From: Bellilinea caldifistulae
Lineage (GTDB): Bacteria > Chloroflexota > Anaerolineae > Anaerolineales > Anaerolineaceae
DNA length: 32,000 nucleotides
Reading direction: 5' to 3'
Assembly: GCF_001306055.1 (NCBI RefSeq)
Contig: NZ_LGHJ01000024.1
Span: forward strand, 30,001-62,000
Translations under genes and position numbers: made by a program
Notes under the pieces: generated by a model
The model's database searches: none
Told to the model about the DNA's origin: nothing
Seen by the model: the letters and a program-made list of their open reading frames with translations, nothing else
Part shown: positions 4,230 through 27,736 of the stretch, piece after piece
Numbering within the stretch: the first letter of the stretch is position 1
Layout: every line of letters begins with the position of its first letter

Positions 4230-5162
4230 ATGCCGCTTTTGACCATCTTCACCGCCCCCAAACCGTTTACCAACCCGCACATTGCGATGATTCAGCGCAA
4301 TGCCCTGCGTTCGTGGCTGGCTTTGGGTGATGAGGTGGAGGTACTGCTGATCGGCGATGAAGAGGGCCTCGCCGAAACGGCGGCAGAATTGGGTATCCGC
4401 CACTTGCCACAGGTGGAACGCAACGCCTACGGCACGCCGCTGATTCGCTCGATATTCGACCTCGCGCGCCGGCACGGCAGCGGTGAAATTCTGGCTTATG
4501 TGAATGCCGATATTCTGCTGCTGCCCGATTTTGTGGAAGCGGCAAAGCGGGCTGCCGGGCAGTTTTCAGGTTTCCTCATCGTTGGGCAGCGTTGGGACGT
4601 GGATGTGCGCCAGTCGCTGGATTTTGAAGGGGAGTGGGCCGACCGACTGCGGCAAATGGCGCTCAACGAGGGACGCCTGCACTCGCCCGGCGGCAGCGAT
4701 TATTTCATCTTCCCCCGTGAGTGTTTCGAGAATGTGCCGCCAATGGCGGTCGGGCGGGCCGGCTGGGATAACTGGATGATTTATGCCGCGCGGGCGGCTG
4801 GTTTACCGGTGATTGATGCCAGTCAAAGCGTGATGATTTTGCATCAAAATCACGACTACTCGCACCTGCCCGGCGGTCAGCCCCACTATCGCCTTCCGGA
4901 AACGGAAGAAAACGTGCGATTGGGCGGCGGCAAGTTGACCATCTTCAAACTGACGGATGCCACTCATCGCCTGACCGACGAGGGAGTCTCCCCTTTGCCG
5001 CTGAAGGGCGAAAAACTGCGCCGCGAGGTGGAGATTTTCCCGCTGGTGCGCCTGCATTCGTCGGCGCTGGCGTGGTTGTTTTTTGCCGTTTTTCACCCTT
5101 ATAAGGCCTATGCCGAATTGCGCAAACGGCTGACGGCTCCTCACAACCGAAAGGAAGGATGA
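4230..5162 (+). CDS. Conserved hypothetical protein, possible GT-A-fold glycosyltransferase
   Basis: 310-aa ORF tightly packed in the operon. N-terminal LTIFTAPKPF...QRNALRSW and a central YVNADILLLPDF (DXD-like position) resemble uncharacterised GT-A-like proteins. I recognised no definitive motif. Confidence 0.55.
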   Translation: MPLLTIFTAPKPFTNPHIAMIQRNALRSWLALGDEVEVLLIGDEEGLAETAAELGIRHLPQVERNAYGTPLIRSIFDLARRHGSGEILAYVNADILLLPDFVEAAKRAAGQFSGFLIVGQRWDVDVRQSLDFEGEWADRLRQMALNEGRLHSPGGSDYFIFPRECFENVPPMAVGRAGWDNWMIYAARAAGLPVIDASQSVMILHQNHDYSHLPGGQPHYRLPETEENVRLGGGKLTIFKLTDATHRLTDEGVSPLPLKGEKLRREVEIFPLVRLHSSALAWLFFAVFHPYKAYAELRKRLTAPHNRKEG

Positions 5163-5165
5163 ACG

Positions 5166-6122
5166 ATGCGTGTAGGTCAAAACCCGGCCAAGTTCGTCAA
5201 AGAAGTTGCCAACCCGGAACGCATTACGGTAGCGGTGTTAAGTTACATCCCGTTCCTGAGCGGTTTTTATGCCGAAACGCTGGATGTGCTGAAGGTTTGC
5301 CTTGCCTCGGCACGCAAAGATGCCGGTCTGCCGTTTGATCTGCTGGTGTTCGACAACGGCTCATGCGCCGAGGTGCAGGACTGGCTGGTAAGTGAGCAGC
5401 GTGACGGTAATATTCAGTATTTGATCCTATCGGAGAAGAACCTCGGCAAGGGCGGAGCGTGGAATATCATCCTGAACGGTGCGCCGGGAGAGATCATTGC
5501 CTACGCCGACAGTGATGTGCTGTTTTACCCCGGCTGGCTCAAGCAGAGCGTTGACCTGTTGGAAACCTTTCCCCATGTGGGCATGGTGACAGCCCGGCCT
5601 TACCGCACCAATCCTCAGTTTTACAGCAGCACCGTAGCCTGGGCAGAGTCTCAACCGGACGTGCAGGTCGAGCGCGGGCAGTTCATCCCGTGGGAGGTAT
5701 TCCGTGAATTTGACCTGAGTTTGGGACAGAGTGAGGAAGAAATCCGCCAGCGTTACGAGACGACCGAGGACGTGCGGATTACCTACCGCGGCATGCAGGC
5801 GATTGCTGGAGCGTCTCACTGGCAATTCACGGCTTACAAGTCCACGCTGGCGCAATTTTTGCCATTTCAGATGGATCGCCCAATGGGGCAGGTTAAGCAA
5901 CTGGATCAGCGCGTCAATGATGCCGGCCTGCTGCGGCTGATGCCCACCCAGCCCTTCGCCATGAATCTGAGCAATACCCTGCGCGGTCTGAAAGCCGATC
6001 AACACCAGCCTGGCCGCCTGCGCTCCAAACGCCCAAATCCGCTGCTGGATTTTCCGCCGCTGCGGGCGTTGTTGTTGAAATTTTACGACACGATTTTCCG
6101 CTGGTATTATGACCGGCGATAA
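5166..6122 (+). CDS. Glycosyltransferase family 2-like (GT-A)
   Basis: ITVAVLSYIP...LLVFDNGSCAEV...IAYADSDVLFYPGW gives a GT2 layout with DNGS and DSD motifs. Confidence 0.75.
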   Translation: MRVGQNPAKFVKEVANPERITVAVLSYIPFLSGFYAETLDVLKVCLASARKDAGLPFDLLVFDNGSCAEVQDWLVSEQRDGNIQYLILSEKNLGKGGAWNIILNGAPGEIIAYADSDVLFYPGWLKQSVDLLETFPHVGMVTARPYRTNPQFYSSTVAWAESQPDVQVERGQFIPWEVFREFDLSLGQSEEEIRQRYETTEDVRITYRGMQAIAGASHWQFTAYKSTLAQFLPFQMDRPMGQVKQLDQRVNDAGLLRLMPTQPFAMNLSNTLRGLKADQHQPGRLRSKRPNPLLDFPPLRALLLKFYDTIFRWYYDRR

Positions 6123-6124
6123 GG

Positions 6125-7579
6125 ATGGGAGAGATAACCGCAAGTCCTATGACAAACAAACGCATCTTCATCAGTGCTGACCATGGTTTAGCGGTGGTTT
6201 ACTTCCTGCAAACGGATGTGCTGCCCACGCTCTTGAAGGGCGGGGTTGAGGTGGTGCTGCTGACCGACGACGGTCTGGTGGAACAGATTCAACGCCGCTT
6301 TGGGCAGCCGGGTCTGATTGTCGAGGGGTTGCGCCTCAAACAGGCGCGCCATTATTTTGAGACGCACGACCACAGCACGCAGTACTGGCTGCACTTTTTA
6401 CGCTGGATGGGCGGCTCGCGGCGAATCAACACCAACGCCATGGACGGTCACCTGCGCCAGATGCAGCATGAGACCTCCCGGCGGGGTAAATTGTTGATGC
6501 CCTTCATCCGGGCTGCCACGGCGGTGCTGCGTCGTTCGGCTGTGGCGCGGCGGGCGCTGGTCAACTTTCAGATGCGCTACACCCCGCAAATTTATGGTGA
6601 CCTGTTTGAGAAATACCGCCCGGCGCTGGTGGTTGCCAGCACTCCCGGCTGGCGCTTTGACCGCTACCTGCTGCGTGAGGCGGTCCGGCAGGGTATTTGC
6701 ACTGCCACGGCGATTATCGGCTGGGATAATCCCAGCAGTTACCGGCTGCCGGGCGCTCCGGTGGACTACATCACCTGCTGGTCGGAAATTCAAAAGGAAG
6801 AACTGGTGCTGGGTTCAGACTGGCAGCCGGAGCGGGTCAACATCGGCGGTATTCCGGCTTATGACGGTTACTTCCGCAAACAGTGGCAGATGAGCCGCGA
6901 AGAATACTTTGCCCTGCACGGGCTTGACCCGCAGCGTAAATTGCTGGCTTACGCTTCCAGTTTTGTCACTTTTGCGCCGAATTACCCCAACATCGAGGCG
7001 TTGGCGCGGCTGGTAGCCGAAGACCGCCTGGCTTACCCGGCGCAGCTGCTCATCCGTCTGCATCCCAATCATTTCATCCCCGGTTCGCTCTACGAAAAAG
7101 AGGCGCAGCGCGTTCGTCAACTGGTTGGTGAATTACCCCATGTTCATCTGGTTGAGCCGGTCCCGCTGGGCGGTGAATTGGGATATTATTCCGGGGAGGA
7201 CATGCCGGAAAAATCCTCGATGATGGCCCATGCGGATGTCTTTCTGACTGTTTATTCAACGATGGTGGTGGAAACCGCCATCCACGACCGCCCGATTGTG
7301 AGTGTGTGCATTGACACACCCGGCGGGTGGAACACGCCCGGCAAATTTTCACTGGCGCTTTCGGAAATTGCCGAATGGCCGACTCATTTACGCTTCCGGC
7401 AGGCCGGTGCCGGGCGGGTTGCGCTCAATCCCGAACAGGTGCGCGAGGCGGTCAATTTTTACCTGACTCAGCCGGATGCCGACCGCGAAGCACGCCGCCG
7501 CTTTGTGGAGCGGGAAGTGACTTTCACGGATGGCAGCGCCGGCAGGCGTACCGCCGAATATCTGCTTTCTCTGGTGTGA
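6125..7579 (+). CDS. Uncharacterised GT-B-like protein with HP motif; candidate CMP-ulosonic-acid (sialyl/Kdo-type) transferase
   Basis: 484 aa, with LIRLHPNHF (HP codons at 7061-7066) followed by FLTVYSTMVVETAIHDRPIVSV. This arrangement resembles Capsule_synth/sialyltransferase-type GT-B C-terminal domains. The assignment is tentative. Confidence 0.45.
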   Translation: MGEITASPMTNKRIFISADHGLAVVYFLQTDVLPTLLKGGVEVVLLTDDGLVEQIQRRFGQPGLIVEGLRLKQARHYFETHDHSTQYWLHFLRWMGGSRRINTNAMDGHLRQMQHETSRRGKLLMPFIRAATAVLRRSAVARRALVNFQMRYTPQIYGDLFEKYRPALVVASTPGWRFDRYLLREAVRQGICTATAIIGWDNPSSYRLPGAPVDYITCWSEIQKEELVLGSDWQPERVNIGGIPAYDGYFRKQWQMSREEYFALHGLDPQRKLLAYASSFVTFAPNYPNIEALARLVAEDRLAYPAQLLIRLHPNHFIPGSLYEKEAQRVRQLVGELPHVHLVEPVPLGGELGYYSGEDMPEKSSMMAHADVFLTVYSTMVVETAIHDRPIVSVCIDTPGGWNTPGKFSLALSEIAEWPTHLRFRQAGAGRVALNPEQVREAVNFYLTQPDADREARRRFVEREVTFTDGSAGRRTAEYLLSLV

Positions 7580-7587
7580 GGAAACTC

Positions 7588-8574
7588 ATGAAGTTCTTGA
7601 TCGCCGGTTTTGGTTCGATAGGCCGCAGGCATCTGCGCAATTTGCTGGCGCTGGGGGAGCGCGATATTATCCTGTACCGCACCCACCGTTCCACCCTGCC
7701 GACCGATGAAATTGAGCAGTTCCCCACCGAAACCTCTCTGGAAGCCGCGCTTGCCCACCGTCCCGATGCGGTGATCATCTCCAACCCGACCGCTTTGCAC
7801 CTTTCGGTTGCCATACCGGCTGCCCGGCAGGGCTGCCACATCCTCATGGAAAAGCCGATTTCCCACTCGTTGGAGGGATTGGACGAACTGCGCCGCGCGC
7901 TGGAGCAGGGCGGCGGTCAATTGCTGATGGGATACCAGTTTCGCTTTCATCCTACCTTGCGGACGGCAGCGGCGGTGATCGCCGCCGGTGAGATCGGCCG
8001 GCCGCTGGCGGTGCGGGCGCACTGGGGCGAGTACCTGCCCAACTGGCATCCGTGGGAAGATTACCGCCAGAGTTATGCAGCCCGCCCAGACCTGGGCGGG
8101 GGGGTCATCCTGACCCTCTGCCACCCGCTGGACTACCTGCGGATGATGATTGGAGAAATCCGCTCGGTCAGCGCCATGACGGCTACCATCCCCGAGCTCG
8201 ACCTGAATCTGGATGCGGTGGCGGAAATTCTGCTGGGTTTTGAGAATCAGGCGGTTGGCAGTGTCCATCTGGATTACATTCAGCAGCCGGCCCAACACAC
8301 CGTGCAGGTGATTGGCAGTGAGGGTGTGCTGAATTGGGATAACACCAGTGGCCTGCTCGCCTGGCAGCGGGTGGGAGAAAACCAGCCACACCACGCTCAC
8401 CCGCCGGCGGATTTTGAGCGCAACTGGATGTTTCTGGAACAGATGCGCCATTTTCTGGAAGTGGTGCGCGGAGAAGACCGACCGATTTGTACGCTGGAGG
8501 ACGGCCAACGCGCTTTGCAAATTGCTCTGGCAGCGCTCGATTCGGCCCGGCAGGGACGGACATTCACGATATGA
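7588..8574 (+). CDS. Gfo/Idh/MocA family NAD(P)-dependent oxidoreductase
   Basis: MKFLIAGFGSIGRRHLRNL Rossmann N-terminus and the EKP motif (ILMEKPISH). I chose ATG 7588 over the track start at 7327 because the extension overlaps the upstream CDS and the fold begins at 7588. Confidence 0.85.
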   Translation: MKFLIAGFGSIGRRHLRNLLALGERDIILYRTHRSTLPTDEIEQFPTETSLEAALAHRPDAVIISNPTALHLSVAIPAARQGCHILMEKPISHSLEGLDELRRALEQGGGQLLMGYQFRFHPTLRTAAAVIAAGEIGRPLAVRAHWGEYLPNWHPWEDYRQSYAARPDLGGGVILTLCHPLDYLRMMIGEIRSVSAMTATIPELDLNLDAVAEILLGFENQAVGSVHLDYIQQPAQHTVQVIGSEGVLNWDNTSGLLAWQRVGENQPHHAHPPADFERNWMFLEQMRHFLEVVRGEDRPICTLEDGQRALQIALAALDSARQGRTFTI

Positions 8575-8585
8575 GGAAGAAAACC

Positions 8586-9356
8586 ATGCAAACCCATTCC
8601 CGCTCTCCCATGACATGGATACTCATATGGCTGACGGCTGCCCTCGCTCTGTCTGCCTGTCAACCCCAGCAAAACACCACTCCAACCGCCGATGTTCAGG
8701 AAACGGCGTTGTCTATGGCAAAGACGGCCCTCAACCCGACGGCCAGCCCAACTCCGGCGGCCACTGCTACGCCCTCACCCACGGTAACCCTCACCTTGAC
8801 CGCCACCCCAACGCTGCCGCCGACCGAAACGCCCACACCGGCACCCTTGTTTTCCAGTCTTCGTTTCATCGGCGTAACGGCTCGTTATGATGGCGCCAGC
8901 ATCATCCTTGAAATCCCCAATTTGCAGCAGGTTTACAACCTGACCATCAACGGGGTTAATTATCTTTGTCAACTGGCGGAGAGCGCCCCCAACCGGCTGT
9001 TTTGCAACGGACTCGCCAAACCGCCGGTGGATCAACCGGTGCAGGTGATTTTGCGCGACCCCGAAACCAACCAGGCGGTATTTGAGACTGTCACTTCGAT
9101 CTCGTCCATTCTGGTGGTTACTCCCATGCCTCGTGGCTATTACGACCCGAATTGCCCGCAACGCGGGCTGGACGTGAAATGTGAGATGGAATGCCGCATC
9201 CCGCCCAGCGGTGAACCGTGTGTGGTGGCAAGTTGTTACGATTCGTGCGGGCTGTATTTATCCATTCATACCTGTCCCGAAAATGTGGATGTCTATCCGG
9301 CGCTTTGCACCGACGAACAGTGGGCAGAAATGAAAGCCCGCCACAATATTCCTTGA
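8586..9356 (+). CDS. Secreted lipoprotein with Pro/Thr-rich linker and C-terminal 10-Cys domain (paralog A)
   Basis: Signal peptide with lipobox LALSAC (Cys25), then a PT-rich linker (ASPTPAATATPSPTVTLTLTATPTLPPTETPTPAP), then a Cys-rich domain ending EQWAEMKARHNIP. AGGAAG lies upstream of ATG 8586. Confidence 0.7.
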   Translation: MQTHSRSPMTWILIWLTAALALSACQPQQNTTPTADVQETALSMAKTALNPTASPTPAATATPSPTVTLTLTATPTLPPTETPTPAPLFSSLRFIGVTARYDGASIILEIPNLQQVYNLTINGVNYLCQLAESAPNRLFCNGLAKPPVDQPVQVILRDPETNQAVFETVTSISSILVVTPMPRGYYDPNCPQRGLDVKCEMECRIPPSGEPCVVASCYDSCGLYLSIHTCPENVDVYPALCTDEQWAEMKARHNIP

Positions 9357-9371
9357 GTGAGTGATCAGAAA

Positions 9372-10127
9372 ATGAAATTCTACCGATTGAGTTTGTTGGT
9401 TCCGTTGATTGTGATCGTGGCAGGCTGTGCTTCACCGCTGCCCTTAACGGCCGAGCCGGCCCGCTCAACGCCGACGGAAAGTCCCACGGAGGCGGTAATG
9501 ATCACCTCCACATCCCTGCCGCCGATGCCGACGGCGGTAGAACCCTCTGCAACTTTTACCGCAACGGCAACGCTTCTGCCCAGCCCGACGATTGCGCCAA
9601 CCCCAACCCCGCTGGCGGATTTTTCTTCGCTGCGGGTGATTACGTTGGAAAGCAACACTTTCGGCTGGATGATACAGTTCCACCTGCCCGGAATTGGGCA
9701 GCCTCTGCTATTAAAATTGGATGGGAAAGACTACCGCTGTTCGCTAGACGAGCGTTACCCCGAGCGTTTATTTTGTCAGGGGCTGGCAAAACCGTCCGTG
9801 GATCAATCTATGTTGCTGGTGTTCGTCAATCCAGAAAATGGTGAGGAAGTGTACCGGGGCAGTTTGATCATCCCGCTGGCTTTTATGGTACCGCCAACTC
9901 CGGTGGGTTATCTGCATACGGCTTGCGATCAGCGCGGTAAGAATGTTTCCTGCGAAACAGAATGCCGGATTGATCCAAACGGCAATCCCTGTATTGTGGC
10001 AACCTGTACGGACGCCTGCGGACCTTACTTTGCCGTGCATTCCTGCCCGGATGATATGCCGCTGCCATCCCCTTCCTGCTCAGCGGAACAGTGGGCGATG
10101 ATGAAAAAACGCTATCAAATTCCTTGA
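9372..10127 (+). CDS. Secreted lipoprotein with Pro/Thr-rich linker and C-terminal 10-Cys domain (paralog B)
   Basis: MKFYRLSLLVPLIVIVAGC lipobox (Cys19), a PT-rich linker, and a C-terminal domain colinear with paralog A, with all 10 Cys aligned, ending EQWAMMKKRYQIP. I prefer ATG 9372 to GTG 9357. Confidence 0.7.
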   Translation: MKFYRLSLLVPLIVIVAGCASPLPLTAEPARSTPTESPTEAVMITSTSLPPMPTAVEPSATFTATATLLPSPTIAPTPTPLADFSSLRVITLESNTFGWMIQFHLPGIGQPLLLKLDGKDYRCSLDERYPERLFCQGLAKPSVDQSMLLVFVNPENGEEVYRGSLIIPLAFMVPPTPVGYLHTACDQRGKNVSCETECRIDPNGNPCIVATCTDACGPYFAVHSCPDDMPLPSPSCSAEQWAMMKKRYQIP

Positions 10128-10138
10128 GAGAGGTAAAA

Positions 10139-10963
10139 ATGAGCCACATTCTGGATAAGTTTCGAATGGACGGACAGGTTGCGGTAGTGACCGGCGGGGC
10201 AGGTTTGCTGGGACGGCAATTCTGCCGAACGCTGGCTGAAGCCGGTGCTGCCGTGGTGGTTGCGGATTTGAACCGCATGAGCGCCATCACGCTGGCGGAA
10301 AACCTGCAAAAAGACGGCTATCCGGCGCTTGGCACCGGCGTGGATGTGACCGATCCCGACTCGGTGGAAGATATGGTTGCAGCGGCGGTCAATCATTTTG
10401 GGCGGCTGGATGTGCTGGTGTGCAGTGCCGCCATGGATCCGAAATTCGATGCCGAACACGCTGATCAGCAGCAGGGTAACGCTTTTGAAACCTACCCGCT
10501 GGAAGCCTGGCGGCAGGCACTGGATGTCAACCTGACCGGCATGTTCCTCAGCGCTCAGGCAGCCGTCAAGCCGATGCTGGCGCAGAATCACGGTGTGATC
10601 ATCAATATCTGCTCCACATACGGATTGGTTGGCCCGGATCAGCGGATTTATCAGCGCCCTGGACAACCGCCGCAGTACAAGCCGGTGTTTTACTCCGTCA
10701 CCAAAGCCGGCGTGCTGGGGTTGACCCGCTATCTGGCGACCTATTATGCCGGGCGGAACATTCGCGTGAATGCGCTGACCCCCGGCGGGGTTTATCATCA
10801 GCATGACCCCGTGTTTGTCGAAAATTACAGTTATCGTACCGTGATGGGGCGGATGGCTGAACAGGATGAGATGAACGGCGCATTGCTCTTTCTGGCTTCA
10901 GACGCTTCCAGTTACATGACGGGCGCCAATCTGGTGGTGGACGGAGGCTGGACGGCATGGTGA
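10139..10963 (+). CDS. Classical short-chain dehydrogenase/reductase (SDR)
   Basis: VAVVTGGAGLLGRQF (TGxxxGxG), the NICSTYG region and YSVTKAG (YxxxK). ATG 10139 has the RBS GAGAGAGG. Confidence 0.85.
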   Translation: MSHILDKFRMDGQVAVVTGGAGLLGRQFCRTLAEAGAAVVVADLNRMSAITLAENLQKDGYPALGTGVDVTDPDSVEDMVAAAVNHFGRLDVLVCSAAMDPKFDAEHADQQQGNAFETYPLEAWRQALDVNLTGMFLSAQAAVKPMLAQNHGVIINICSTYGLVGPDQRIYQRPGQPPQYKPVFYSVTKAGVLGLTRYLATYYAGRNIRVNALTPGGVYHQHDPVFVENYSYRTVMGRMAEQDEMNGALLFLASDASSYMTGANLVVDGGWTAW

Positions 10964-13103: not shown

Positions 13104-14720
13104 ATGAACTGGACGGTGGAGCGCATCCGCAAGGGCGTGCAGCGGCGCTGGCTGCAAGCGCAGAATAACCGGCGCCTGGCTGATCTGGCAGCGCAAATTG
13201 AACGAAATGCGCCGCCGGTGGTCGATTCGCGCCCGGTGGTGATGTTCAATGCGTCCAGCCGGCTGGCGTGGATGAGCCTGAATGCGGCGTTTACCCTGCT
13301 GAGCGGTTGGGGTTTGCGTCTGGCGGGGGTGCCGGTGGTGCATTTCGTCTGCCGGGCGGGGATGACGCGTTGTCAACTCGGCAGTGCGCTGACCCCGTTT
13401 GACCAACCGCCGCCGTGTGCGGCTTGCGTCCGCCAGTCGGGGCATCTTTACCGCAACGGAAAGGTGCGCTGGTTTGAGTACCAGCCGGTGGAAGAAGTCG
13501 AACGCGCCACAGCCGGTCTGCCGCTGACCGATTTGATGGGTTTTGGGTGGCAGGGTTTACCGCTGGGTGAACTGGTGCTGCCATCGCTGCGCTGGGCGCT
13601 GCGCCGCCATGATCTGGAAGATGACGAGCCGACCCGCTTTCTGCTCAGGCAGTTCCTTCTTTCGGCGGCGCGGGTGGCGGTGGAGTTTTCCCGCTTTGTT
13701 GAGGAAGTGCAGCCCCGGGCGGTGGTGGTATTCAACGGCGTTTCCTACCCGGAGGCGGTGGCAAGGCAGATTGGACAGAAGCACGGCCTGCCGGTGATTA
13801 CGCACGAGGTGGGCTTACAGCCGTTCAGTGCTTTCTTCTCGCACGGGCATGCAACTGCCTACCCGATTGATGTGCCGTCCAATTTTGAACTCAACCCGGA
13901 CCGGGAAGCGCGCCTGAACGCTTACCTTGAAAAACGCTTTCAGGGGCAGTTCAGCATGGCGGGCATCCGCTTTTGGCAGGACATGCGTCATCTGGATGAG
14001 GGTTTACTGCAAAAGGCAGCTGCCTTCCGTCAAATTGTGCCGGTTTTTACCAATGTGATATTTGATACCAGCCAAATCCACGCCAACATCCTCTTCCGGG
14101 ATATGTTCGCCTGGCTGGATGAGGTGTTGGAGATCATCCGCGCTCACCCCGAAACCCTGTTTGTGGTGCGGGCTCATCCCGATGAAGACCGTCCCGGCAA
14201 ACAAGCTCGCCAGAGTGTTACCGGCTGGGCTGCCCAAAAACGGCTGACTGATTTGCCGAACGTGGTGTTCATTCCGCCGGCGGAATATCTGAGTTCTTAT
14301 GAGTTGATCCAACGCTCCAAATTTGTGATGGTTTATAATTCGACCATCGGTCTGGAAGCCTCTATCCTGGGGAGTGCGGTGTTGTGCGGCGGGCAGGCAC
14401 GCTACACCCGTCTGCCAACCGTGTTTTTGCCCCAATCGGCCGAGGATTTTCGCCGGATGGCGGAAGCCTTTTTACGCGCCGAGCGAGTTAGTCCACCGCC
14501 TGAGTTTCAACGAAACGCCCGCCGATTTTTGTACTATCAACTATTTCGGGCTTCACTGCCGTTTGATGCCTTTTTGGAAGAGGACCTGACTCCCGGTTTT
14601 GTGCGCCTGAAAAAGAACCTGGGCTGGCAGGACTTTTTGCCCGAATCTTCCCCCACGCTGGCGGTGATCAACCGCGGGGTGCTTCAGGGTGAGCCGTTTT
14701 TGCTACCGGAGGAGGATTAA
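13104..14720 (+). CDS. Capsule_synth (KpsC/KpsS)-like GT-B protein; candidate CMP-ulosonic-acid transferase
   Basis: VVVFNGVSYPEAVARQIGQKHGLPVITHEVG, then LFVVRAHPDEDRPGK (HP codons at 14175-14180), then VMVYNSTIGLEASILGSAVLCGGQARY. This closely mirrors the KpsC/KpsS beta-Kdo transferase motif order. The N-terminus carries a CX6C...CX2C cluster. Confidence 0.55.
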   Translation: MNWTVERIRKGVQRRWLQAQNNRRLADLAAQIERNAPPVVDSRPVVMFNASSRLAWMSLNAAFTLLSGWGLRLAGVPVVHFVCRAGMTRCQLGSALTPFDQPPPCAACVRQSGHLYRNGKVRWFEYQPVEEVERATAGLPLTDLMGFGWQGLPLGELVLPSLRWALRRHDLEDDEPTRFLLRQFLLSAARVAVEFSRFVEEVQPRAVVVFNGVSYPEAVARQIGQKHGLPVITHEVGLQPFSAFFSHGHATAYPIDVPSNFELNPDREARLNAYLEKRFQGQFSMAGIRFWQDMRHLDEGLLQKAAAFRQIVPVFTNVIFDTSQIHANILFRDMFAWLDEVLEIIRAHPETLFVVRAHPDEDRPGKQARQSVTGWAAQKRLTDLPNVVFIPPAEYLSSYELIQRSKFVMVYNSTIGLEASILGSAVLCGGQARYTRLPTVFLPQSAEDFRRMAEAFLRAERVSPPPEFQRNARRFLYYQLFRASLPFDAFLEEDLTPGFVRLKKNLGWQDFLPESSPTLAVINRGVLQGEPFLLPEED

Positions 14721-17409: not shown

Positions 17410-19059
17410 ATGAGCCAAAAATTGGAACGAAGATTATTGATCTTGATTTTGACGGCGTATGGGGTGTATGCGGTTGTCTTTATCGCAAAGACCATCTTTT
17501 GGGTGGATGGAATCCCCTATTCAGCGCTTTTCGACGATATGATGATTTCAATGACCTATGCCCGCAATCTGGCACAGGGGTATGGACTGGTGTGGAATCC
17601 CGGCGGTGAACGGGTAGAAGGCTTCAGCAATCCGTTGTGGGTGGCGTTTATGGCGTTGTTTCATTTGCTGCCCATCCCGGAAAACTGGATCAGTCTGGCG
17701 GTGCAAATCAGCGGCGGGGTCTTTTTCCTCGCCAGTTTGCTGGTGCTGCGGCGGGTGGCTGAACAGGTTTCCGCCCGGCAGGCACGGGTTGTTTTGCTGG
17801 CGGTGCTGTTGACCGCTTTTTACTACCCACTCAGCAACTGGTCGCTGTTGGGGTTGGAGGTCAGTGTGTTGCTGCTGATGGTCAACCTCTCCATGTTTCT
17901 CGCCTTGCGCACACTGGAGAGCGGGCAATTTTCGCGCCGGCTGTACCTGCTGATGGGGCTGGCTACGCTGGTGCGGGTGGATGCAGCCGTCACTTACCTG
18001 ACCGTGTGGGGATTGCTGGTGTGGTTTGACCGTGCCAACCGCCGCCGTCACTTAATTGAAGGCAGTCTCTTCTTGCTGCTATTTGTGGGTGGTCAGACGC
18101 TGGCGCGCAAACTGTACTACGGCGAATGGGTGCCGAACACCTACATTCTCAAGGTGGAAGGGCTGCCGCTTTGGGCGCGCTTGCGTCGCGGATTGCAGGT
18201 GACCTGGAACTTCGTGCGCGGCTTTTCTCCATTACTGATGATCTTTCCCTTCACGGTCTTTCTTTTCCGCCGTGACCGGAAAGTGTTGCTGGTGGCACTG
18301 GTCTTTATGGCGCAGGTAGCGTACAGCATCTACGTCGGCGGGGATGCCTGGGAGCACCGTGGCGGGGCGAACCGCTTTGTGGCGTTGGGAATGCCGGCCG
18401 TGTTTGTCCTCTTCTCGCTGGCGGCGTGGGAGTGGTATGACCGGCTTGGCGACTGGTTGCACCAACGCGGTGGGGCTTTGGCGCGCGGTCTGATCCGGCT
18501 GATGCCGGTCGGGCTGGCCGCTTTCATCCTGCTGAGCATGCTTCTTTGGAACCGAATGCCGGGGAATTATGGGATTATTACCAGCCTGAGGCGGATTGAT
18601 GAAGGTGAGTTGCGTTTTTTCCTGCTGCTGGATCGCTCCATTTACGTGCCGGGTAATGAGCGATACACCCGTGATGCGATCATCATCCGCCGGCTGACTC
18701 AGCCGGATGCCAGTGTGGCGATGGTAGCTGCCGGCAATATCTGCTACTTCTCCCATCGCTACTGCATTGATTTACTGGGCAAGAGTGACCCGGTGATTGC
18801 CCGTGGTGGCATTCAGGTGCCGCCAGATGCGGACTGGCGCGAATTGCAGCCGGGGCATATCAAGTTCAACTATCAGTATTCCATTGGAACACTCAAACCC
18901 GATGTGGTGGTTGAAATCCGCCGCAGTACGGGGGATATTGCCGAAAAGTATCTGGATGATGAATACCTCATGGCAAAAGTGAACACCCATCCGATGTACT
19001 TCCGCAAAGACTCCAACAAAATAGATTGGGTACAATTAGAATATGTCCGAGAAGATTGA
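17410..19059 (+). CDS. Polytopic membrane protein, GT-C-fold glycosyltransferase-like, with C-terminal soluble domain
   Basis: Many predicted TM helices across the N-terminal ~400 aa. An acidic DD motif sits in the first loop (SALFDDMMISMTYARNL), as in GT-C enzymes. The C-terminal ~150 aa are hydrophilic. Confidence 0.5.
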   Translation: MSQKLERRLLILILTAYGVYAVVFIAKTIFWVDGIPYSALFDDMMISMTYARNLAQGYGLVWNPGGERVEGFSNPLWVAFMALFHLLPIPENWISLAVQISGGVFFLASLLVLRRVAEQVSARQARVVLLAVLLTAFYYPLSNWSLLGLEVSVLLLMVNLSMFLALRTLESGQFSRRLYLLMGLATLVRVDAAVTYLTVWGLLVWFDRANRRRHLIEGSLFLLLFVGGQTLARKLYYGEWVPNTYILKVEGLPLWARLRRGLQVTWNFVRGFSPLLMIFPFTVFLFRRDRKVLLVALVFMAQVAYSIYVGGDAWEHRGGANRFVALGMPAVFVLFSLAAWEWYDRLGDWLHQRGGALARGLIRLMPVGLAAFILLSMLLWNRMPGNYGIITSLRRIDEGELRFFLLLDRSIYVPGNERYTRDAIIIRRLTQPDASVAMVAAGNICYFSHRYCIDLLGKSDPVIARGGIQVPPDADWRELQPGHIKFNYQYSIGTLKPDVVVEIRRSTGDIAEKYLDDEYLMAKVNTHPMYFRKDSNKIDWVQLEYVRED

Positions 19060-21572: not shown

Positions 21573-23114
21573 ATGGACGAAAATGGATTACCCCACACCG
21601 CCGGCAGACCAGGCCTGTTTGTTCAGCCGCGCTGGCTGAGCGGTGTGCTGCTGGTGTTGCTGCTGGTGGGCGGGGCGGCTTTTCGCCTGTATGACCTGAC
21701 CGACCCGCCGCTGGATTTTCACCCCACCCGGCAGGTGCGTTCTTTGATCATTGCGCGCGGTATGTACTTGCAACAATTGCCCGATGTGCCGGAACAACAG
21801 CGCGAGTATGCTGTACGTCAATGGCGGGCGCAGGATGTGATCGAACCGCCGATCATGGAGTCGCTGGTTGCCTTTACCTACCGCTTATCCGGCGCTGAAA
21901 TCGTCTGGGCGGGAAGGGCTTTTTCAATCTTCTTCTGGATGCTGGGCGGGCTGGGTTTGTGGCTGCTTGGTCGCCGTTTGATCCATGTGGATGTCGGTCT
22001 GTTGGCTCTGATGCTGTATTTGGGCTGGCCGTACGCCATTCTGGCTTCGCGTTCCTTTCAGCCAGACCCGTTGATGACCGCCGCCATTATCTGGGCTTTG
22101 TGGGGTGCCGCTGAGTGGCAAACTAGACCCGCCTGGGGCAGGGCAGTTCTGGCGGGTTTACTGGCCGGTCTCGCCCTGTTGATCAAGTGGACGGCCGTCT
22201 TTTTTATCGCCGGCGGCTGGCTGGGGCTACTGCTGGCCGATGGCGGGTTGCGCCGCTTGTGGCGGGATCGTCAGTTGTGGGTCATCGGCGGGCTGGCGGT
22301 TTTGCCGGGGCTGATATACGCGCTCTATTCAGCGATGGTGTTGAACAGCCTGCAAGGGCAGTTGAGCCTGCGTTTTTTTCCGCAAATGTGGCTGGATGCG
22401 GCTTTTTACCTGCGCTGGTGGACACGCTTAAACGCCGTGTTGAACCTGCCGTGGCTGGTGTTAATGATTGCTGGAATTTTCTCGCTGTCAGCCGGGCGTG
22501 CCCGCTCGCTGTTACTCGGCTGGGCGGTCGGTTATGGGGTCTATGCGTTCATTTTTTCGTACTACGTCAGCACACACGACTATTATCACCTGCCGCTTAT
22601 CCCGCTGGCGGCGCTGGGTGCAGGCAGCGCACTGGCCGGGCTGTTGTCCATTTTGCAGGTTCACGCCGGCTGGCGGCGAGGCATGGCGGTGCTTGGGCTT
22701 GCTTTCATTTTTCTGGCCGAGGGCTGGTCGGCACGCACCCTGCTCAAACGGCAGGACTTTCGTCCGGTTGTGGAGCAGATTCAATCCATTGCGGCGCACT
22801 TTTCGCCGGAGGACAGTCTGGTCAGTCTTGCGCCCGATTACAGTTTACCGCTGGTCTATTGGGGTTGGCTGAACACGACTCACTGGTTTGGGGTGGGTGA
22901 TTTTGCCCTGCGAGAGGCAGCCGGGCAAAAGATGGATTTTGAAGAGTATTTTCAAAATCAGACCCGTGGGCGGGATTACTTTCTGGTGACCGATTTTGAG
23001 GAACTGGCGCGCCAGCCGCAGCTGGAAATGGAATTGAAAAATCACTATCCGCTGGTGCTGGAAGGGCCGGATTTTCGGGTGTATGATTTACGGCAGCGGA
23101 AAGAATCGCCATGA
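21573..23114 (+). CDS. GT-C-fold membrane glycosyltransferase, ArnT/PMT (GT39/GT83)-like
   Basis: About 12 hydrophobic segments. The first loop FRLYDLTDPPLDFHPTRQVRSLIIARGMY resembles PMT_2/ArnT-family N-termini. The C-terminal ~120 aa are soluble. Confidence 0.6.
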   Translation: MDENGLPHTAGRPGLFVQPRWLSGVLLVLLLVGGAAFRLYDLTDPPLDFHPTRQVRSLIIARGMYLQQLPDVPEQQREYAVRQWRAQDVIEPPIMESLVAFTYRLSGAEIVWAGRAFSIFFWMLGGLGLWLLGRRLIHVDVGLLALMLYLGWPYAILASRSFQPDPLMTAAIIWALWGAAEWQTRPAWGRAVLAGLLAGLALLIKWTAVFFIAGGWLGLLLADGGLRRLWRDRQLWVIGGLAVLPGLIYALYSAMVLNSLQGQLSLRFFPQMWLDAAFYLRWWTRLNAVLNLPWLVLMIAGIFSLSAGRARSLLLGWAVGYGVYAFIFSYYVSTHDYYHLPLIPLAALGAGSALAGLLSILQVHAGWRRGMAVLGLAFIFLAEGWSARTLLKRQDFRPVVEQIQSIAAHFSPEDSLVSLAPDYSLPLVYWGWLNTTHWFGVGDFALREAAGQKMDFEEYFQNQTRGRDYFLVTDFEELARQPQLEMELKNHYPLVLEGPDFRVYDLRQRKESP

Positions 23115-24514
23115 AATCGGTCTTCGAGCGGGTGGTTTTGATTGTAGTTTGCCTGGTGCTGCTTTGCGGTCTGGGAGCGACGGCATACGCCGGCACTTTC
23201 AGCCGTTACTGGGCGGATGACTACTGTTACGCGGCGGTGGTACAGCGGGATGGTCTGATCCGCGGCACGCTGTACTGGTATCAGAACGGCGGTAACCGCT
23301 TTGCGGCCTTCCTTGCCGTTGGGCTGATTGAGCGGCTAGGTCAGGCGTCGGTTGTGTTTTTACCGTCGGGGCTGCTGATCGCCTGGGCAGCGGCGGCCAG
23401 CTTTGCCTTGAACGCACTGGTGAAACTGGCGGGCTGGAAGGTACACCGTCTGTGGCTGGCAACTGCCTCGCTGGGCTGGGTATTTTTCCTGACCTATACT
23501 TCGCCTGACCGTTTGCAAACCCTCTACTGGCGCATGGGACTGCTGCACTACTCCCTGCCGCTGGTGCTGATCCTGATTCAGGCTGGGGTGGTGCTTGGCG
23601 GTCTGACTACCGGCAAGCCCGCCCGGCTGGTGTGGATCAGCGCTGCCAACGGCCTTTTGGCTCTGTTTTGCGCCGGCCTTTCGGAAACGGCGGCAGCGCT
23701 GCAAACGACCCTGTATTTGCTTTTGGCAGCCGGGCTGGTGATATGGGGCGGCGGCGGAAAGCGCAACGGGCTGGTGTTGTTGAGTGGCGGGCTGATGGCT
23801 TCGCTGCTTGCCCTGTTGATCATGGCGCTTTCTCCGGCCAACGAGTGGCGGCAGGCCTTATTACCCCCTCCGCCTTCGGCTGGCGCGTGGGGCGGTGCGC
23901 TCCTGCGTTACACCATTGATTTTGTGCGGGATACTTTACGTACTCTACCGCTGCCGTTGGGGATGTGGCTGGCGTTTTGTGGCGTGCTGGGTTATCTCCT
24001 GAATGGAAATAAGCCGAGAAATTCAGGGCTGGCGGGATGGGCGCTGCTGGCTGCCGGGATCATTGGCACGGCGGCGGCGATGGCGCCGAGTGTTTATGCC
24101 GGGCTGCAATACCCCGCTGGCCGGGCGTTGATGACCGCCCGTTTCCCGCTGATGAGCGGGTTGGGTCTGGCGGCCGCCGCGTGGGGCAACTGGCTGAAAG
24201 GCCGCTTGCCCTCTGCTTCCCACCAGTGGGTGAGCGCCGCCGGGCTGGTTGGGCTGCTGCTGGTTGGGGCTTATGTGCTGCGGGCCACCCAGCTGCCGCT
24301 CAAAGAGGCACAGATGCTGGCGGTCAAAGCCGCCCGCTGGGATGCACGTCAGGCTGAGATTTTATCTCAGCGCGCCGCGGGTTTACAGACCATTCGCGTT
24401 CGCGAGGTGGATGTCGTCAGCACGCTGGAAGACCTGACTCCCCAGCCTGAGCATTGGGTCAACGGCTGTGCCGCGGATTACTATCAGGTCGAGCAAATTA
24501 TTGCAGAGCGATAG
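23111..24514 (+). CDS. Polytopic membrane protein with N-terminal-loop DD motif (GT-C-like or polymerase-like)
   Basis: Highly hydrophobic 467-aa ORF. YWADDYCYAAV follows the first TM helix. ATGA overlap with the upstream GT-C gene. Confidence 0.45.
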   Translation: MKSVFERVVLIVVCLVLLCGLGATAYAGTFSRYWADDYCYAAVVQRDGLIRGTLYWYQNGGNRFAAFLAVGLIERLGQASVVFLPSGLLIAWAAAASFALNALVKLAGWKVHRLWLATASLGWVFFLTYTSPDRLQTLYWRMGLLHYSLPLVLILIQAGVVLGGLTTGKPARLVWISAANGLLALFCAGLSETAAALQTTLYLLLAAGLVIWGGGGKRNGLVLLSGGLMASLLALLIMALSPANEWRQALLPPPPSAGAWGGALLRYTIDFVRDTLRTLPLPLGMWLAFCGVLGYLLNGNKPRNSGLAGWALLAAGIIGTAAAMAPSVYAGLQYPAGRALMTARFPLMSGLGLAAAAWGNWLKGRLPSASHQWVSAAGLVGLLLVGAYVLRATQLPLKEAQMLAVKAARWDARQAEILSQRAAGLQTIRVREVDVVSTLEDLTPQPEHWVNGCAADYYQVEQIIAER

Positions 24515-25307: not shown

Positions 25308-25718
25308 ATGGCTCGAAAAACCTCGTCTCCCTCAGGCCGTTATTCGCCCGGCTTTTTTGGCGAAATTGCGCTGCGCATCAAACTGGTGCTGCGTTTGCTG
25401 GCTGATCCGCGCGTCAACATTTTTATCAAACTGATTCCCTTTGCTTCCTTCATCTATTTTTTCCTGCCGGATCTGGTGATCGGGCCGCTGGATGATGCGG
25501 CGGTGCTGGGGATTGCTTTCAGCCTGTTTGTTGAGCTGTGTCCGCCGGAGGTGGTGGAAGAACATCTGCAGCAACTGCGGGCAGAAGCCCAGAGACGATC
25601 GGCCTCTCCGTCGGAGCGCAAGGCCATTGAGGAAGACATCATCGAGGGCGAGTATTACGAGATTAAGGACGTGACCATTCACGAAAATGGCCACAAAGAG
25701 GAGAAAGAGAAGCGATGA
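25308..25718 (+). CDS. Small membrane protein, DUF1232 (YkvA)-like, with charged C-terminal tail
   Basis: LLADPRVNIFIKLIPFASFIYFFLPDLVIGPLDDAAVLG resembles the DUF1232 core (Y..P.DLIP...G.LDD). ATG 25308 is preceded by GGAGG. ATGA overlap with the next gene. Confidence 0.55.
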   Translation: MARKTSSPSGRYSPGFFGEIALRIKLVLRLLADPRVNIFIKLIPFASFIYFFLPDLVIGPLDDAAVLGIAFSLFVELCPPEVVEEHLQQLRAEAQRRSASPSERKAIEEDIIEGEYYEIKDVTIHENGHKEEKEKR

Positions 25719-27037
25719 AAGTTCGTTCCCCCATTGTGTTGCGGCTGAGTCTGGCCATGCTGCTGTTTGGTTTGATAGCTGCGGCTTGCAGCCCAACCCC
25801 GCAGATTACCCCGCCGGCGACATTAATGCCCACTTCTCCGCCGTCGCAGCCGACCACTCAGCCAGAACCGGTTTCCTCACCTGTAGCCGAAGCAACTCCA
25901 CTAACCGAGGATACGGCAGTGTCTTCTCCCACCGAAACCGCTGGGCCGGGCAACGTGACGGCCTTTCCGGCCGTTGCGGCTTTTGATTGGGTTACCATCG
26001 CCGGCGGTTTGCGCCGCCCGACCGATTTTGCCGATCCGAATGATGGCAGCGGACGATTGCTGGTGCTGGAACAGCCGGGCTTGATTCGGGTGATTGCGGA
26101 TGGGCAGCTCCAGGAGCGTCCGTTTCTGGATCTGACCGACCGGGTGGGCGCCAATTCGTCTGAACAGGGATTGCTGGGAATTGCGCTCGATCCGGATTAT
26201 GCGGAGAACGGCATTTTTTACCTGAATTACACCGACAAGAACGGCAATACCGTGGTTTCCCGCTTCCGGCGTTCTGCTGATGGGACAAGCGGTGATCCTC
26301 AATCCGAGCAGGTGTTGTTGTACGTGGAGCAGCCCTACGCCAATCACAACGGCGGTGATTTGGAGTTCGGCCCGGATGGCTATTTATACATCGGTTTGGG
26401 AGATGGTGGTTCTGCCGGTGACCCGCAGCGGCGTGCCCAAAACAATCAAACCTTGCTGGGCAAGATGCTGCGTTTGGATGTACGCGGTCAAACCCTGTAT
26501 GCCATCCCGCCGGACAATCCGTTTGCGGACGGTAACGGTGGACGTCAGGAAATCTGGGCAAACGGGTTGCGCAACCCGTGGCGCTACACCTTCGACCGAC
26601 TGACCGGTGACCTGTATATTGCAGACGTGGGACAGAATAAGTACGAAGAAATCAATTTTGTACCGGCGGGCAGCCCACCCGGCCTCAATTTTGGATGGCA
26701 TTACCGTGAAGCAACCCATCCGTTTGCGGATACACCCCCGGCCGGCTTGTCGTTGTACGATCCGGTGCATGAATACGGGCGCAACGATGGTTGCTCGGTT
26801 ACCGGTGGTTATGTCTATCGTGGCAGTCAATTACCGGAGTTTTACGGGGTTTACCTGTTTGGCGATTACTGCAACGGCTTTGTGTGGGGGATGCTGCGGG
26901 ACTCAAACGGTAACTGGGTGGTCGAGCGTCTCTTCCAGTTGGGTGCCAACATCAGCTCATTTAGCGAGGATGCGCAGGGGGAGTTGTACCTGCTGGATCA
27001 TCGTTCGGGCAGCATCTACAAGCTGATACGCCGGTAA
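25715..27037 (+). CDS. PQQ-dependent sugar (glucose/sorbosone) dehydrogenase family lipoprotein, beta-propeller
   Basis: Lipobox LIAAAC, a Pro/Thr/Ser-rich linker, then LLVLEQPGLIRVI, GLLGIALDPDY, NHNGGDLEFGPDGYLYIGLGDGGSAGDP and LLGKMLRLDV. These are the classic GSDH motifs. Confidence 0.85.
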   Translation: MKVRSPIVLRLSLAMLLFGLIAAACSPTPQITPPATLMPTSPPSQPTTQPEPVSSPVAEATPLTEDTAVSSPTETAGPGNVTAFPAVAAFDWVTIAGGLRRPTDFADPNDGSGRLLVLEQPGLIRVIADGQLQERPFLDLTDRVGANSSEQGLLGIALDPDYAENGIFYLNYTDKNGNTVVSRFRRSADGTSGDPQSEQVLLYVEQPYANHNGGDLEFGPDGYLYIGLGDGGSAGDPQRRAQNNQTLLGKMLRLDVRGQTLYAIPPDNPFADGNGGRQEIWANGLRNPWRYTFDRLTGDLYIADVGQNKYEEINFVPAGSPPGLNFGWHYREATHPFADTPPAGLSLYDPVHEYGRNDGCSVTGGYVYRGSQLPEFYGVYLFGDYCNGFVWGMLRDSNGNWVVERLFQLGANISSFSEDAQGELYLLDHRSGSIYKLIRR

Positions 27038-27083
27038 GAGAGGATGAAAATCCAACCGAATGGGTAAAAATCATCCTGTTCAA

Positions 27084-27110
27084 TTGCCCGGTTTTACGCT
27101 ATGCTATGGT
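27084..27110 (+). promoter_or_regulatory. Possible sigma70-type promoter (TTGCCC-15 nt-TATGGT)
   Basis: Hexamers read by eye in the 95-nt gap upstream of the small ORF. The spacer is short and the -10 is weak. Confidence 0.2.
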
Positions 27111-27132
27111 AAAGGATTACTGGAGGTGTGTG

Positions 27133-27357
27133 ATGGCTGACAAACGCTGGGAAACGATCCGTGTGCAGTTTTGTGACCATGCCGGCTGTGAAGTGCGGCT
27201 GGAGGCTGAACTGGTCTATCCGGCTGAATTTTTACCCGATCAACCGCCGCGCCTGGTTTCCAAACGCTGTTCGCGCGGTTTGGAATGCAACATGTGGAAC
27301 AACATGACCTGCATCTGGGCCGGCACCAATCCGATGTATGATCCGTTTGAGAAGTAA
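27133..27357 (+). CDS. Small Cys-rich hypothetical protein (74 aa)
   Basis: ATG 27133 is preceded by GGAGG. The protein is MADKRWETIRVQFCDHAGCEV...CSRGLECNMWNNMTCIW with 5 Cys. I recognised no family. A strong terminator follows. Confidence 0.45.
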   Translation: MADKRWETIRVQFCDHAGCEVRLEAELVYPAEFLPDQPPRLVSKRCSRGLECNMWNNMTCIWAGTNPMYDPFEK

Positions 27358-27411
27358 ACATCCGGTAAAAGCAAGCCAGCCTGGTAATTTGAATCATCGA
27401 AACCGGTATCA

Positions 27412-27439
27412 AACAGCGGGGTAAATCCCCGCTGTTTTT
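27412..27439 (+). terminator. Rho-independent terminator
   Basis: Perfect 10-bp stem AACAGCGGGG (27412-27421) / CCCCGCTGTT (27427-27436), a 5-nt loop TAAAT, and a T-run through 27439. Confidence 0.75.
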
Positions 27440-27491
27440 GCTTGTCTGTAGAAGGCTCAGGAAAATCTTAATCCGTTATAATTTGGTGGTT

Positions 27492-27733: not shown

Positions 27734-27736
27734 AAC

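Follow-up and report, generated by a model that had tools for sequence, protein, structure and literature searches.

Tandem stalked lipoproteins with a cysteine-rich module at a fixed slot of a nonulosonic-acid glycan operon in Bellilinea caldifistulae

The 32,000-nucleotide (nt) window of the Bellilinea caldifistulae contig NZ_LGHJ01000024.1 analysed here, to whose positions all coordinates refer, carries two tandem genes, BECAL_00661 and BECAL_00662, inside a nonulosonic-acid glycan operon. Their products, lipoproteins A and B, are probably membrane-anchored surface proteins that carry the sugar coat or help to assemble it. The best guess, unproven at present, is that they act as surface lipoglycoproteins in an accessory role, linked to a glycosylation step that faces outward. 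Together with their relatives they form a small uncharacterised family, which is tied by strict synteny and gene co-variation to a glycan locus with nonulosonic-acid and glycosyltransferase (GT) C genes. Part of this is of a known kind, namely lipid-anchored proteins on Pro/Thr stalks with a predicted, ordinary immunoglobulin (Ig)-like N-terminal module. The new part comprises a C-terminal module without a family or fold match in the libraries searched, the tandem lipoprotein genes at a fixed slot of the operon, and an apparent cassette exchange with an unrelated pair. The Anaerolineae, which are filamentous Chloroflexota, abound in digesters, sediments, and hot springs, and to our knowledge almost nothing is known about their cell envelope at the molecular level.

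Architecture and conservation of the lipoprotein pair

The original prediction had described two adjacent genes for proteins of about 250 amino acids (aa) with the same architecture. This holds, with 256 and 251 aa on the + strand, and the pair is laid out as follows.

8586..9356, + strand: lipoprotein A gene, BECAL_00661, 256 aa; open reading frame (ORF) with the exact sequence deposited; the "A" paralogue, of Bellilinea type
8586..8660, + strand: A signal peptide with lipobox L-S-A-C and Cys25 (codon 8658-8660) as predicted lipidation site; read from the sequence
8661..8843, + strand: A stalk, Pro/Thr/Ala-rich, 61 aa; Thr plus Ser 34%, Pro 20%; ratio of nonsynonymous to synonymous substitutions (dN/dS) 0.12-0.21
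8844..9128, + strand: A N module, predicted Ig-like beta-sandwich with 2 conserved Cys; profile columns 1-95, AlphaFold2 (AF2) model of the paralogue, Foldseek; dN/dS 0.10-0.11
9129..9353, + strand: A C module, 75 aa, 8 Cys; profile columns 96-170, hmmsearch; dN/dS 0.03; no library match
9372..10127, + strand: lipoprotein B gene, BECAL_00662, 251 aa; ORF with the exact sequence deposited; the "B" paralogue, orthologous across genera
9372..9428, + strand: B signal peptide with lipobox V-A-G-C and Cys19 (counted from ATG 9372); read from the sequence, position conserved
9429..9614, + strand: B stalk, Pro/Thr/Ala-rich, 62 aa; Thr plus Ser 34%, Pro 23%
9615..9899, + strand: B N module, predicted Ig-like beta-sandwich with a predicted disulfide C123-C135 (251-aa numbering); AF2, Foldseek, hmmsearch
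9900..10124, + strand: B C module, predicted to have three strands and one helix with four disulfides; AF2, cysteine co-loss; dN/dS 0.02-0.04

A and B share 92 of 230 residues (40%, E = 4e-57; BLASTP of 8586-9353 against 9357-10124), which is far above chance and bears out the earlier estimate of roughly 40% made by eye; they are paralogues. Both are deposited as "hypothetical protein", A from Bellilinea caldifistulae as GAP09517.1/WP_061913448.1 and B, with 251 aa, as GAP09518.1/KPL72329.1/WP_062158973.1. The start of B is most likely ATG 9372 (MKFYRL...) and not GTG 9357, from which it had been read before, because its homologues open with MKNYRF or MKNFRF and the deposited protein has 251 aa. 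The start of A, ATG 8586, has GAGGA 8 nt on its 5' side. An in-frame ATG at 8571, which overlaps the stop codon of the preceding oxidoreductase gene as ATGA, would lengthen A by 5 residues (MRKKT); the longer protein has no entry in the public protein collection, and the start was therefore left at 8586. The gaps are 11 nt before A, 15 nt between A and B, and 11 nt after B, and neither promoter-like nor terminator-like sites were found between the flanking genes, so that co-transcription of both genes with the glycan operon is the simplest reading. No RNA family was found by an Rfam scan of the whole window.

The signal peptide of A ends in ...LALSAC and that of B in ...IVAGC, both of which fit the lipobox pattern [LVI][ASTVI][GAS]C, and each has the positive n-region and hydrophobic core of a bacterial lipoprotein signal. 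The lipobox Cys is kept in at least 90% of 39 aligned family members, in line with the lipobox signal peptides first proposed, and a lipobox is present in most family representatives with an intact N-terminus. Cleavage by Lsp and lipidation by Lgt, whose genes lie outside the window, would take place at this Cys, and no twin-arginine motif occurs in either signal peptide. The stalks match the linker of about 60 aa noticed earlier, with 15-16% Ala beside the Thr, Ser, and Pro listed above. Across the family the stalk has a median of 60 aa (range 51-74) and 35% Thr plus Ser, and it retains length and composition but not sequence. A Ser/Thr/Pro-rich region near the mature N-terminus, which is a non-specific mark of lipoglycoproteins, is thus found in both proteins.

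Substitution rates were estimated by the Nei-Gojobori method between the window and its orthologues in two loci, L001 and L007 (L numbers denote loci and P numbers denote proteins in this text). The dN/dS is 0.02-0.04 for the C module, 0.05-0.11 for the N module, and 0.12-0.34 for the stalk, against 0.02-0.03 for the SDR gene and 0.05-0.10 for the GFO gene on the two sides of the pair; the whole A gene has 0.12-0.14. Both A and B are therefore genes under purifying selection. The C module is as constrained as the adjoining enzymes, whereas constraint on the stalk is relaxed. Likewise, in B the residues that match close orthologues amount to 46-62% in the stalk and 95-97% in the C module.

Behind the stalk each protein has a head of 170 aa. 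The original prediction took it for a single 10-cysteine domain of no known kind. All 10 Cys indeed align and are invariant or near-invariant in the 39 members, but the head consists of two modules, an N module with 2 Cys and a C module with 8, joined by a Pro-rich hinge. AF2 modelling, which had been proposed as a check, gave these two modules. The model of the whole head, from a 37-sequence alignment, has a mean pLDDT (per-residue confidence) of 88.7 and a predicted template modelling score (pTM) of 0.58, with a low-confidence hinge at PPTPVGY. The C module modelled alone from 59 sequences has a pLDDT of 92.5 and a pTM of 0.74, and forms three strands followed by a helix.

N module: The N module is predicted with high confidence to be a seven-strand sandwich (pLDDT 86-97), probably of the ordinary Ig-like kind. 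Both of its Cys are invariant in the family, and it also carries the motif YPDRLFCQGL. Its nearest structural neighbours in the Protein Data Bank (PDB) by Foldseek are Ig-like or E-set sandwiches, comprising CBM48, TIG/IPT, and Ig domains of S-layer and biofilm proteins (E 3e-3 to 0.05, probability up to 0.99), and the matches include SGBP-B and a GH157 accessory domain. These matches are weak, with template modelling (TM) scores below 0.36, which are low because the query contained two domains. The likeness lies in the predicted seven-strand sandwich. In contrast to those sandwiches, the N module has no Pfam match and has its own predicted, conserved disulfide and YPDRLFCQGL motif, with no E-value below 3e-3.

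C module: The conserved motif of the C module is CP.RG.N.SCETECR...PC.V..C.D.CG.Y, which ends in an invariant C-terminal Pro. Even the most distant members conserve C-P-x-R-G, C-E-x-E-x-R, and D-x-C-G-x-Y, and by strand periodicity the E-x-E-x-R residues should lie opposite the face of disulfide-bonded Cys. With a threshold of E <1e-3 or TM >0.5, Foldseek gave a best E of 0.55 against the PDB (query TM score at most 0.36) and of 0.15 against BFVD, and a sequence-profile search of the PDB gave nothing below E 3.9. For A and B as a whole, no Pfam family was found at E <=0.01, and NCBIfam gave noise-level matches on the low-complexity stalk only (E >=0.011, far under the cut-offs). The earlier remark that no known domain could be recognised thus stands for the C module, which has no match in Pfam, NCBIfam, the PDB, or BFVD and is new as far as the libraries searched go; it needs qualifying for the N module with its weak Ig-like matches.

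Disulfide partners were derived from correlated Cys loss over the family sequences, in alignment numbering. C117 and C155 are both missing in all listed short forms (about 40 sequences) except P0071. C126 and C144 are lost together in 9 sequences, and C144 alone in 5 others, which carry a new C-terminal Cys. For C113 and C131 there are 3 joint losses and 2 single ones. Co-loss thus supports three of the four C-module pairs, and C104-C135 was assigned by elimination. In the C module of BECAL_00662 the predicted disulfides would be C185-C216, C194-C212, C198-C236, and C207-C225. In a subgroup of P0115, P0119, P0120, P0123, P0125, P0128, P0133, and P0135, C144 is replaced by Ile or Leu and several members have no N module; most of them end in a new Cys motif (GPCW, GPCY, or SPCN), which suggests a rewired disulfide.

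The eight Cys could alternatively bind a metal or Fe-S cluster or perform thiol chemistry. The spacings C-x3-C, C-x4-C-x3-C-G, and H-x-C-P are metal-like, and the host is an obligate anaerobe, in which extracytoplasmic disulfides are less expected. The Cys are lost in the pairs given above, and the His is replaced by Asp or Gln in many members. Moreover, a Sec-type lipobox signal without a twin-arginine motif makes a pre-folded cofactor protein unlikely. Pairwise loss and this type of signal together argue for structural disulfides, and a metal or redox site is considered very improbable; an Fe-S or metal site was rejected on these two grounds.

The operon slot across related loci

About 22 co-oriented genes (253-25288, + strand) appear to form one operon around the pair, in which the following genes matter for the argument.

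7588..8574, + strand: GFO/IDH/MocA oxidoreductase (GFO) gene, upstream border of the slot (Pfam); upstream neighbour in all family-positive loci
10139..10963, + strand: short-chain dehydrogenase/reductase (SDR) gene, downstream border of the slot (Pfam); downstream neighbour in all loci, followed by a cytidylyltransferase-HAD fusion and NeuB
17410..19059, + strand: 549-aa polytopic membrane protein with GT-C-like architecture (hydropathy, weak NCBIfam match); co-varies with the lipoproteins
21573..24514, + strand: PMT_2 (GT-C, PF13231) and DUF6056 membrane-protein genes with GT2 genes on the flanks (Pfam); about 9 hydrophobic segments each

The operon encodes two NeuB proteins, one with and one without a SAF domain, and three CMP-sugar synthetases, one of which is fused to a KdsC-like phosphatase. 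In addition, there are genes for an MptE/Maf-like protein and for five GT2 enzymes, and three more for polytopic proteins whose type or build is that of GT-C enzymes, namely the PMT_2, DUF6056, and 549-aa proteins. The PMT_2 and DUF6056 proteins are candidates for the outward-facing glycosyltransferases of the operon. In a hydropathy scan the 549-aa protein shows at least seven hydrophobic segments, behind which comes a soluble tail of about 160 aa; it also has a weak NCBIfam match to the LA_3751/LA_3752 putative glycosyltransferase family (E 1.8e-5). A protein O-glycosyltransferase of the GT-C class and a polyprenyl-phosphate-sugar synthase may be among these GT-C-like and GT2 proteins. Neither Wzx, Wzy, an ABC exporter, nor an initiating phosphoglycosyltransferase was seen in the window, and no GtrA-type flippase was identified in it.

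The family to which A and B belong is rare. A word-indexed search of 5.8 billion clusters gave 48 relatives, of which the named ones are all Bellilinea, Anaerolinea, or "Chloroflexota". An exhaustive profile search gave 97 representatives at E <=1e-3 among 1.84 billion, and nearly all of them are lipoproteins of 150-265 aa. The family is modular, and some distant members have the N module only or the C module only behind a similar stalk. In the short form the terminal helix is missing, and C117 and C155 with it. The long form is present in 11 of 185,579 GTDB species representatives, all of them Anaerolineales and including the cultured Anaerolinea thermolimosa IMO-1.

The survey of co-occurrence that the original prediction had proposed was made on the window and 18 further long-form loci (L001-L016, L026, L027), among which some contigs were recovered twice. 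All of these contain the NeuB/GT-C cluster. In every one of them, from Bellilinea, A. thermolimosa IMO-1, and metagenome-assembled genomes (MAGs), the long form lies between the same GFO and SDR genes, and the cytidylyltransferase-HAD fusion, NeuB, a Capsule_synth-like protein, and further genes follow downstream of the slot. Linkage to such loci is thus strict for the rare long form but does not extend to the short forms, which occur elsewhere; the context of the latter is known from two informative cases, two other contigs being too short to judge.

The number of long-form copies per locus is one in L015 and L016, two in most Bellilinea loci, and three in A. thermolimosa, L005/L012, and L011. 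In a neighbour-joining (NJ) tree of the heads, the copies that adjoin the SDR gene form one clade over Bellilinea and Anaerolinea, and the upstream copies form genus-level clades. The duplication is therefore older than the divergence of the genera, and with the purifying selection described above (dN/dS 0.02-0.17 over the folded parts) this agrees with the earlier view of an old duplication in which both copies have been maintained. Two irregular copies were also seen. On the 4.87-Mb MAG chromosome OY969938.1 (L003/L014, 9695-10456), the annotation of the B-type gene gives a 151-aa protein (P0044) and, upstream of it, a distinct ORF of 58 aa. As tblastn aligns 270 residues over both ORFs, this points to a truncated gene or, in the repetitive stalk, to a frameshift or an error of assembly. 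P0038 (361 aa, from a 19.6-kb ENA contig) has lost the conserved C-terminus (...DQWAADEEKVRHP) and reads into the apparent signal peptide and stalk of the next lipoprotein; it is probably an assembly frameshift, and it confirms the tandem arrangement there.

The reverse question was addressed with further loci collected from the cytidylyltransferase-HAD fusion and scored by tblastn and hmmsearch. The GFO-SDR-cytidylyltransferase-NeuB core is far commoner than the lipoproteins. In about 18 metagenomic loci, L024 among them, only 6-224 nt separate the GFO gene from the SDR gene, and in about 10 loci other inserts are found at this junction. The commonest of these, present in at least six loci (L034, L041, L045, L052, L054, L056), is a PAPS synthase of about 574 aa (bifunctional ATP sulfurylase/APS kinase), accompanied by a polytopic membrane protein of some 525 aa, which hints that these related clusters make a sulfated glycan. 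In L025 (contig_42876 of ERZ25039483) the junction contains DUF6311 and a 560-aa membrane protein, and next to the SDR gene, on its upstream side, lie two tandem paralogous lipoproteins with Pro/Thr stalks (5529-6335 and 6355-7122; 36% mutual identity, E 2e-36). This pair belongs to an unannotated family with 4 Cys each after the lipobox and the motifs FWCLP...SCTLVF.FNQP...PCW.GS.PDPVTL.C. It was tried as a distant homologue of A and B and rejected (hhalign probability 0.1%, nothing by hmmsearch), and L025 looks like a non-homologous cassette replacement. From its variable contents the slot appears to be a variable region for outward-facing accessories, and the clusters that lack the lipoproteins indicate that these are not needed for making the sugars.

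A second junction, from the 2-hydroxyacid dehydrogenase to the second SDR gene, varies with the first. Among the loci in which it is visible, it holds a polytopic-membrane-protein gene of 1.65-1.8 kb in six of six family-positive loci and in none of seven family-negative ones, in which the gap is 24-142 nt. The gene is homologous to that of the 549-aa protein of the window in five of the six. An NJ tree was built from the SDR, cytidylyltransferase, and NeuB proteins joined end to end. In it, the negative loci L024 and L025 lie inside the positive clade and the positive L016 lies outside it, which implies at least three joint gain or loss events.

Function of the pair and competing explanations

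The genomic evidence supports coupling of the pair to extracytoplasmic glycosylation, and it does not tell apart an acceptor, a GT-C accessory, and a glycan anchor. The favoured reading, to which a probability of roughly 0.35 is given, is that A and B are the locus's own surface lipoglycoproteins, with an O-glycosylated stalk and a head recognised by a dedicated GT-C-like enzyme. The proteins would be exported by Sec and lipidated at the lipobox Cys, and the mucin-like Pro/Thr stalk of about 60 residues would keep the head off the membrane. They would then act as dedicated protein carriers of the glycan made by the locus. Outside the membrane the stalk would be O-glycosylated by a GT-C-type enzyme, which would be fed by the GT2 and CMP-sugar enzymes of the operon, and the conserved head would be the part that the co-varying 549-aa membrane protein recognises. 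In this scheme, lipidation, disulfide bonding, surface exposure, glycosylation, and the relation of enzyme and partner are all inferred. The points in its favour are the conserved lipobox and stalk, the operon packing, the fixed slot, the enzymes of the operon, the co-variation, the L025 pair, the constraint on the C module, and the actinobacterial precedent discussed below.

Several observations weigh against the carrier reading. One short-form relative stands beside AdoHcyase, PfkB, and IF-2B genes and another between a Ser/Thr kinase and PP2C pair and an M20 peptidase, so that the fold has a role independent of the locus. L024, from a Bellilinea MAG, is a complete syntenic cluster without a lipoprotein gene, and the lipoprotein genes are thus dispensable for the cluster. 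The gene in the second junction of L016 was rejected as a homologue of the 549-aa protein, as it shows no BLASTP similarity; more distant homologues of that protein are present in L045, L047, and L054, which lack the family; and the co-variation is drawn from a small sample of 13 loci and from an NJ tree that has no support values. The Pro/Thr linker had been put forward as a hint of acceptors. It is present, but the glucose/sorbosone dehydrogenase (GSDH) homologue of the same window (25715-27037, + strand) has a lipobox LIAAAC with Cys25 and a Pro/Thr/Ser-rich stalk of about 75 aa before its catalytic domain. It thus seems that lipoproteins of Bellilinea caldifistulae generally have long Pro/Thr stalks, and the stalk therefore does not mark A and B as acceptors. 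A mere carrier would also not need a head under enzyme-level constraint. In the literature searched, no glycosylation data were found for any Anaerolineae protein; searches on Anaerolinea and nonulosonic acid, on lipoprotein O-glycosylation in Chloroflexi, and on Bellilinea caldifistulae gave nothing on A or B, and a 2026 paper on the Chloroflexota envelope does not mention glycoproteins.

The head could instead belong to an extracytoplasmic accessory protein or lectin. It would bind the acidic glycan, either during its synthesis or once complete, or would dock on the soluble part of the 549-aa protein, and would serve the assembly of the surface glycan as scaffold, chaperone, or anchor and not as substrate. 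A dN/dS of 0.02-0.04 for the C module is at the level of an enzyme, and the charged E-x-E-x-R of strand 1 and D-x-C-G-x-Y, near-invariant in distant members, suggest a binding surface. Both fit such an accessory at least as well as a carrier, and the two roles are compatible. The carbohydrate-associated CBM48, SGBP-B, and GH157 accessory domain among the N-module matches, the co-variation with a polytopic membrane protein, and a stalk held at 51-74 aa, as for a spacer of defined reach, point the same way. On the other side, the Ig-like matches (E >=3e-3, TM below 0.36) are weak and not sugar-specific, short forms with the same motif lie outside glycan loci, and the L024 cluster is complete without the genes. 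An accessory without a substrate role is the main rival and only a little less probable than the carrier reading, and hitch-hiking is less probable still. In the latter case the GFO-SDR junction would be a permissive insertion hotspot, and the lipoproteins would do something unconnected with the glycan, for instance in adhesion, in contact between the cells of a filament, or in binding to the wall. This would suit a junction that is empty in about 18 loci, holds the PAPS synthase and membrane protein in at least six, other genes in several, and an unrelated pair in L025, as well as the scattering of short forms over unrelated contexts and the dispensability of the genes. It is opposed by the exact slot, which has been kept in two genera and some 11 species even as protein identity drops to 37-45%, by the B-type copy, which remains orthologous and in position, and by the joint loss or replacement with a second gene 7 kb downstream. 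In addition, most of the other inserts look glycan-related, being sulfation genes or GT-C-like polytopic membrane proteins.

A more specific form of the carrier reading holds that the 75-residue four-disulfide module is a new fold and a recognition handle, by which the 549-aa enzyme would put a nonulosonic-acid glycan on the lipoprotein stalks of its own operon, in a cassette that can be swapped as in L025. Taken whole, this is an unlikely combination. Two of the hosts, Bellilinea caldifistulae GOMI-1 and Anaerolinea thermolimosa IMO-1, are type strains in culture, which makes the question of carrier versus assembly partner directly testable. If A and B are glycosylated, they would be, judging from the literature searched, the first lipoglycoproteins described in Chloroflexota, and they would exemplify acceptor genes within a sugar-biosynthesis operon. 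If they are not, the pair still represents a new domain family worth a Pfam entry, of specialist interest only. The case is a solid and testable lead with a narrow taxonomic range.

Known systems and further features of the window

Actinobacterial lipoglycoproteins: Lipoprotein glycosylation in actinobacteria falls on Thr-rich N-terminal stretches. An example is the LpqH 19-kDa antigen of M. tuberculosis, which the GT-C enzyme Pmt O-mannosylates with polyprenyl-phosphate-mannose from Ppm1. In both systems small lipobox lipoproteins occur without a classical outer membrane, a Thr/Pro/Ala-rich stretch follows right after the lipidated Cys, and GT-C-type and GT2 genes are on hand. In contrast, the heads of A and B have no sequence or fold kinship to these proteins, and their stalk is much longer (about 60 aa). 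The actinobacterial enzyme is a Pmt (PF02366), whereas the candidates here are the PMT_2, DUF6056, and LA_3751-like proteins. Moreover, CMP-activated nonulosonic acids take the place of mannose here, the lipoprotein genes lie inside the sugar operon, and glycosylation is unproven. Actinobacterial lipoproteins are reported to be O-glycosylated by a GT-C enzyme (PMC5341126, PMC5673659, PMC3460810), and the Corynebacterium genes for glycosylation are tied to lipoprotein processing by operon linkage (PMC3460810; also PMC5341126, PMC5673659).

Tannerella forsythia TfsA/TfsB: These S-layer proteins, with an O-glycan ending in nonulosonic acid, resemble the present pair in being tandemly encoded surface proteins associated with such a glycan. 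TfsA and TfsB are self-assembling S-layer proteins of more than 100 kDa that are exported by the type IX route with a C-terminal domain (CTD). Their genes are not known to lie inside the sugar-biosynthesis operon, and they have no known homology to the 25-kDa lipid-anchored A and B. BFO_1060 is linked to nonulosonic-acid transfer in Tannerella. Two proteins of the window (6125-7576 and 13104-14717) have weak matches to the BFO_1060 glycosyltransferase family. An S-layer protein as such was rejected for A and B by their size (about 25 kDa) and lipobox anchor; they have no SLH domain or CTD.

Three-component systems: GtrA/GtrB/GtrC and CsbB/GtcA/YfhO resemble the operon in combining GT2 with polytopic GT-C-like proteins, and in the logic of lipid-linked donors that are used outside the membrane. 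Those systems differ in that they modify O-antigen or teichoic acids and work without a dedicated lipoprotein.

Two further features of the window were observed. The gene at 4230-5159 (+ strand) encodes a 310-aa protein with no Pfam or NCBIfam match and no hydrophobic segment, which is found at the same position in all related clusters with 47-88% identity and thus adds a further uncharacterised component to the locus. Between the GSDH and TauE genes, a region of about 700 nt (27038-27736) has a lower G+C content (0.485 in 27001-28000) and neither an Rfam match nor a long ORF; it contains an 83-aa cysteine-rich ORF (27106-27357, + strand) and short ORF fragments.

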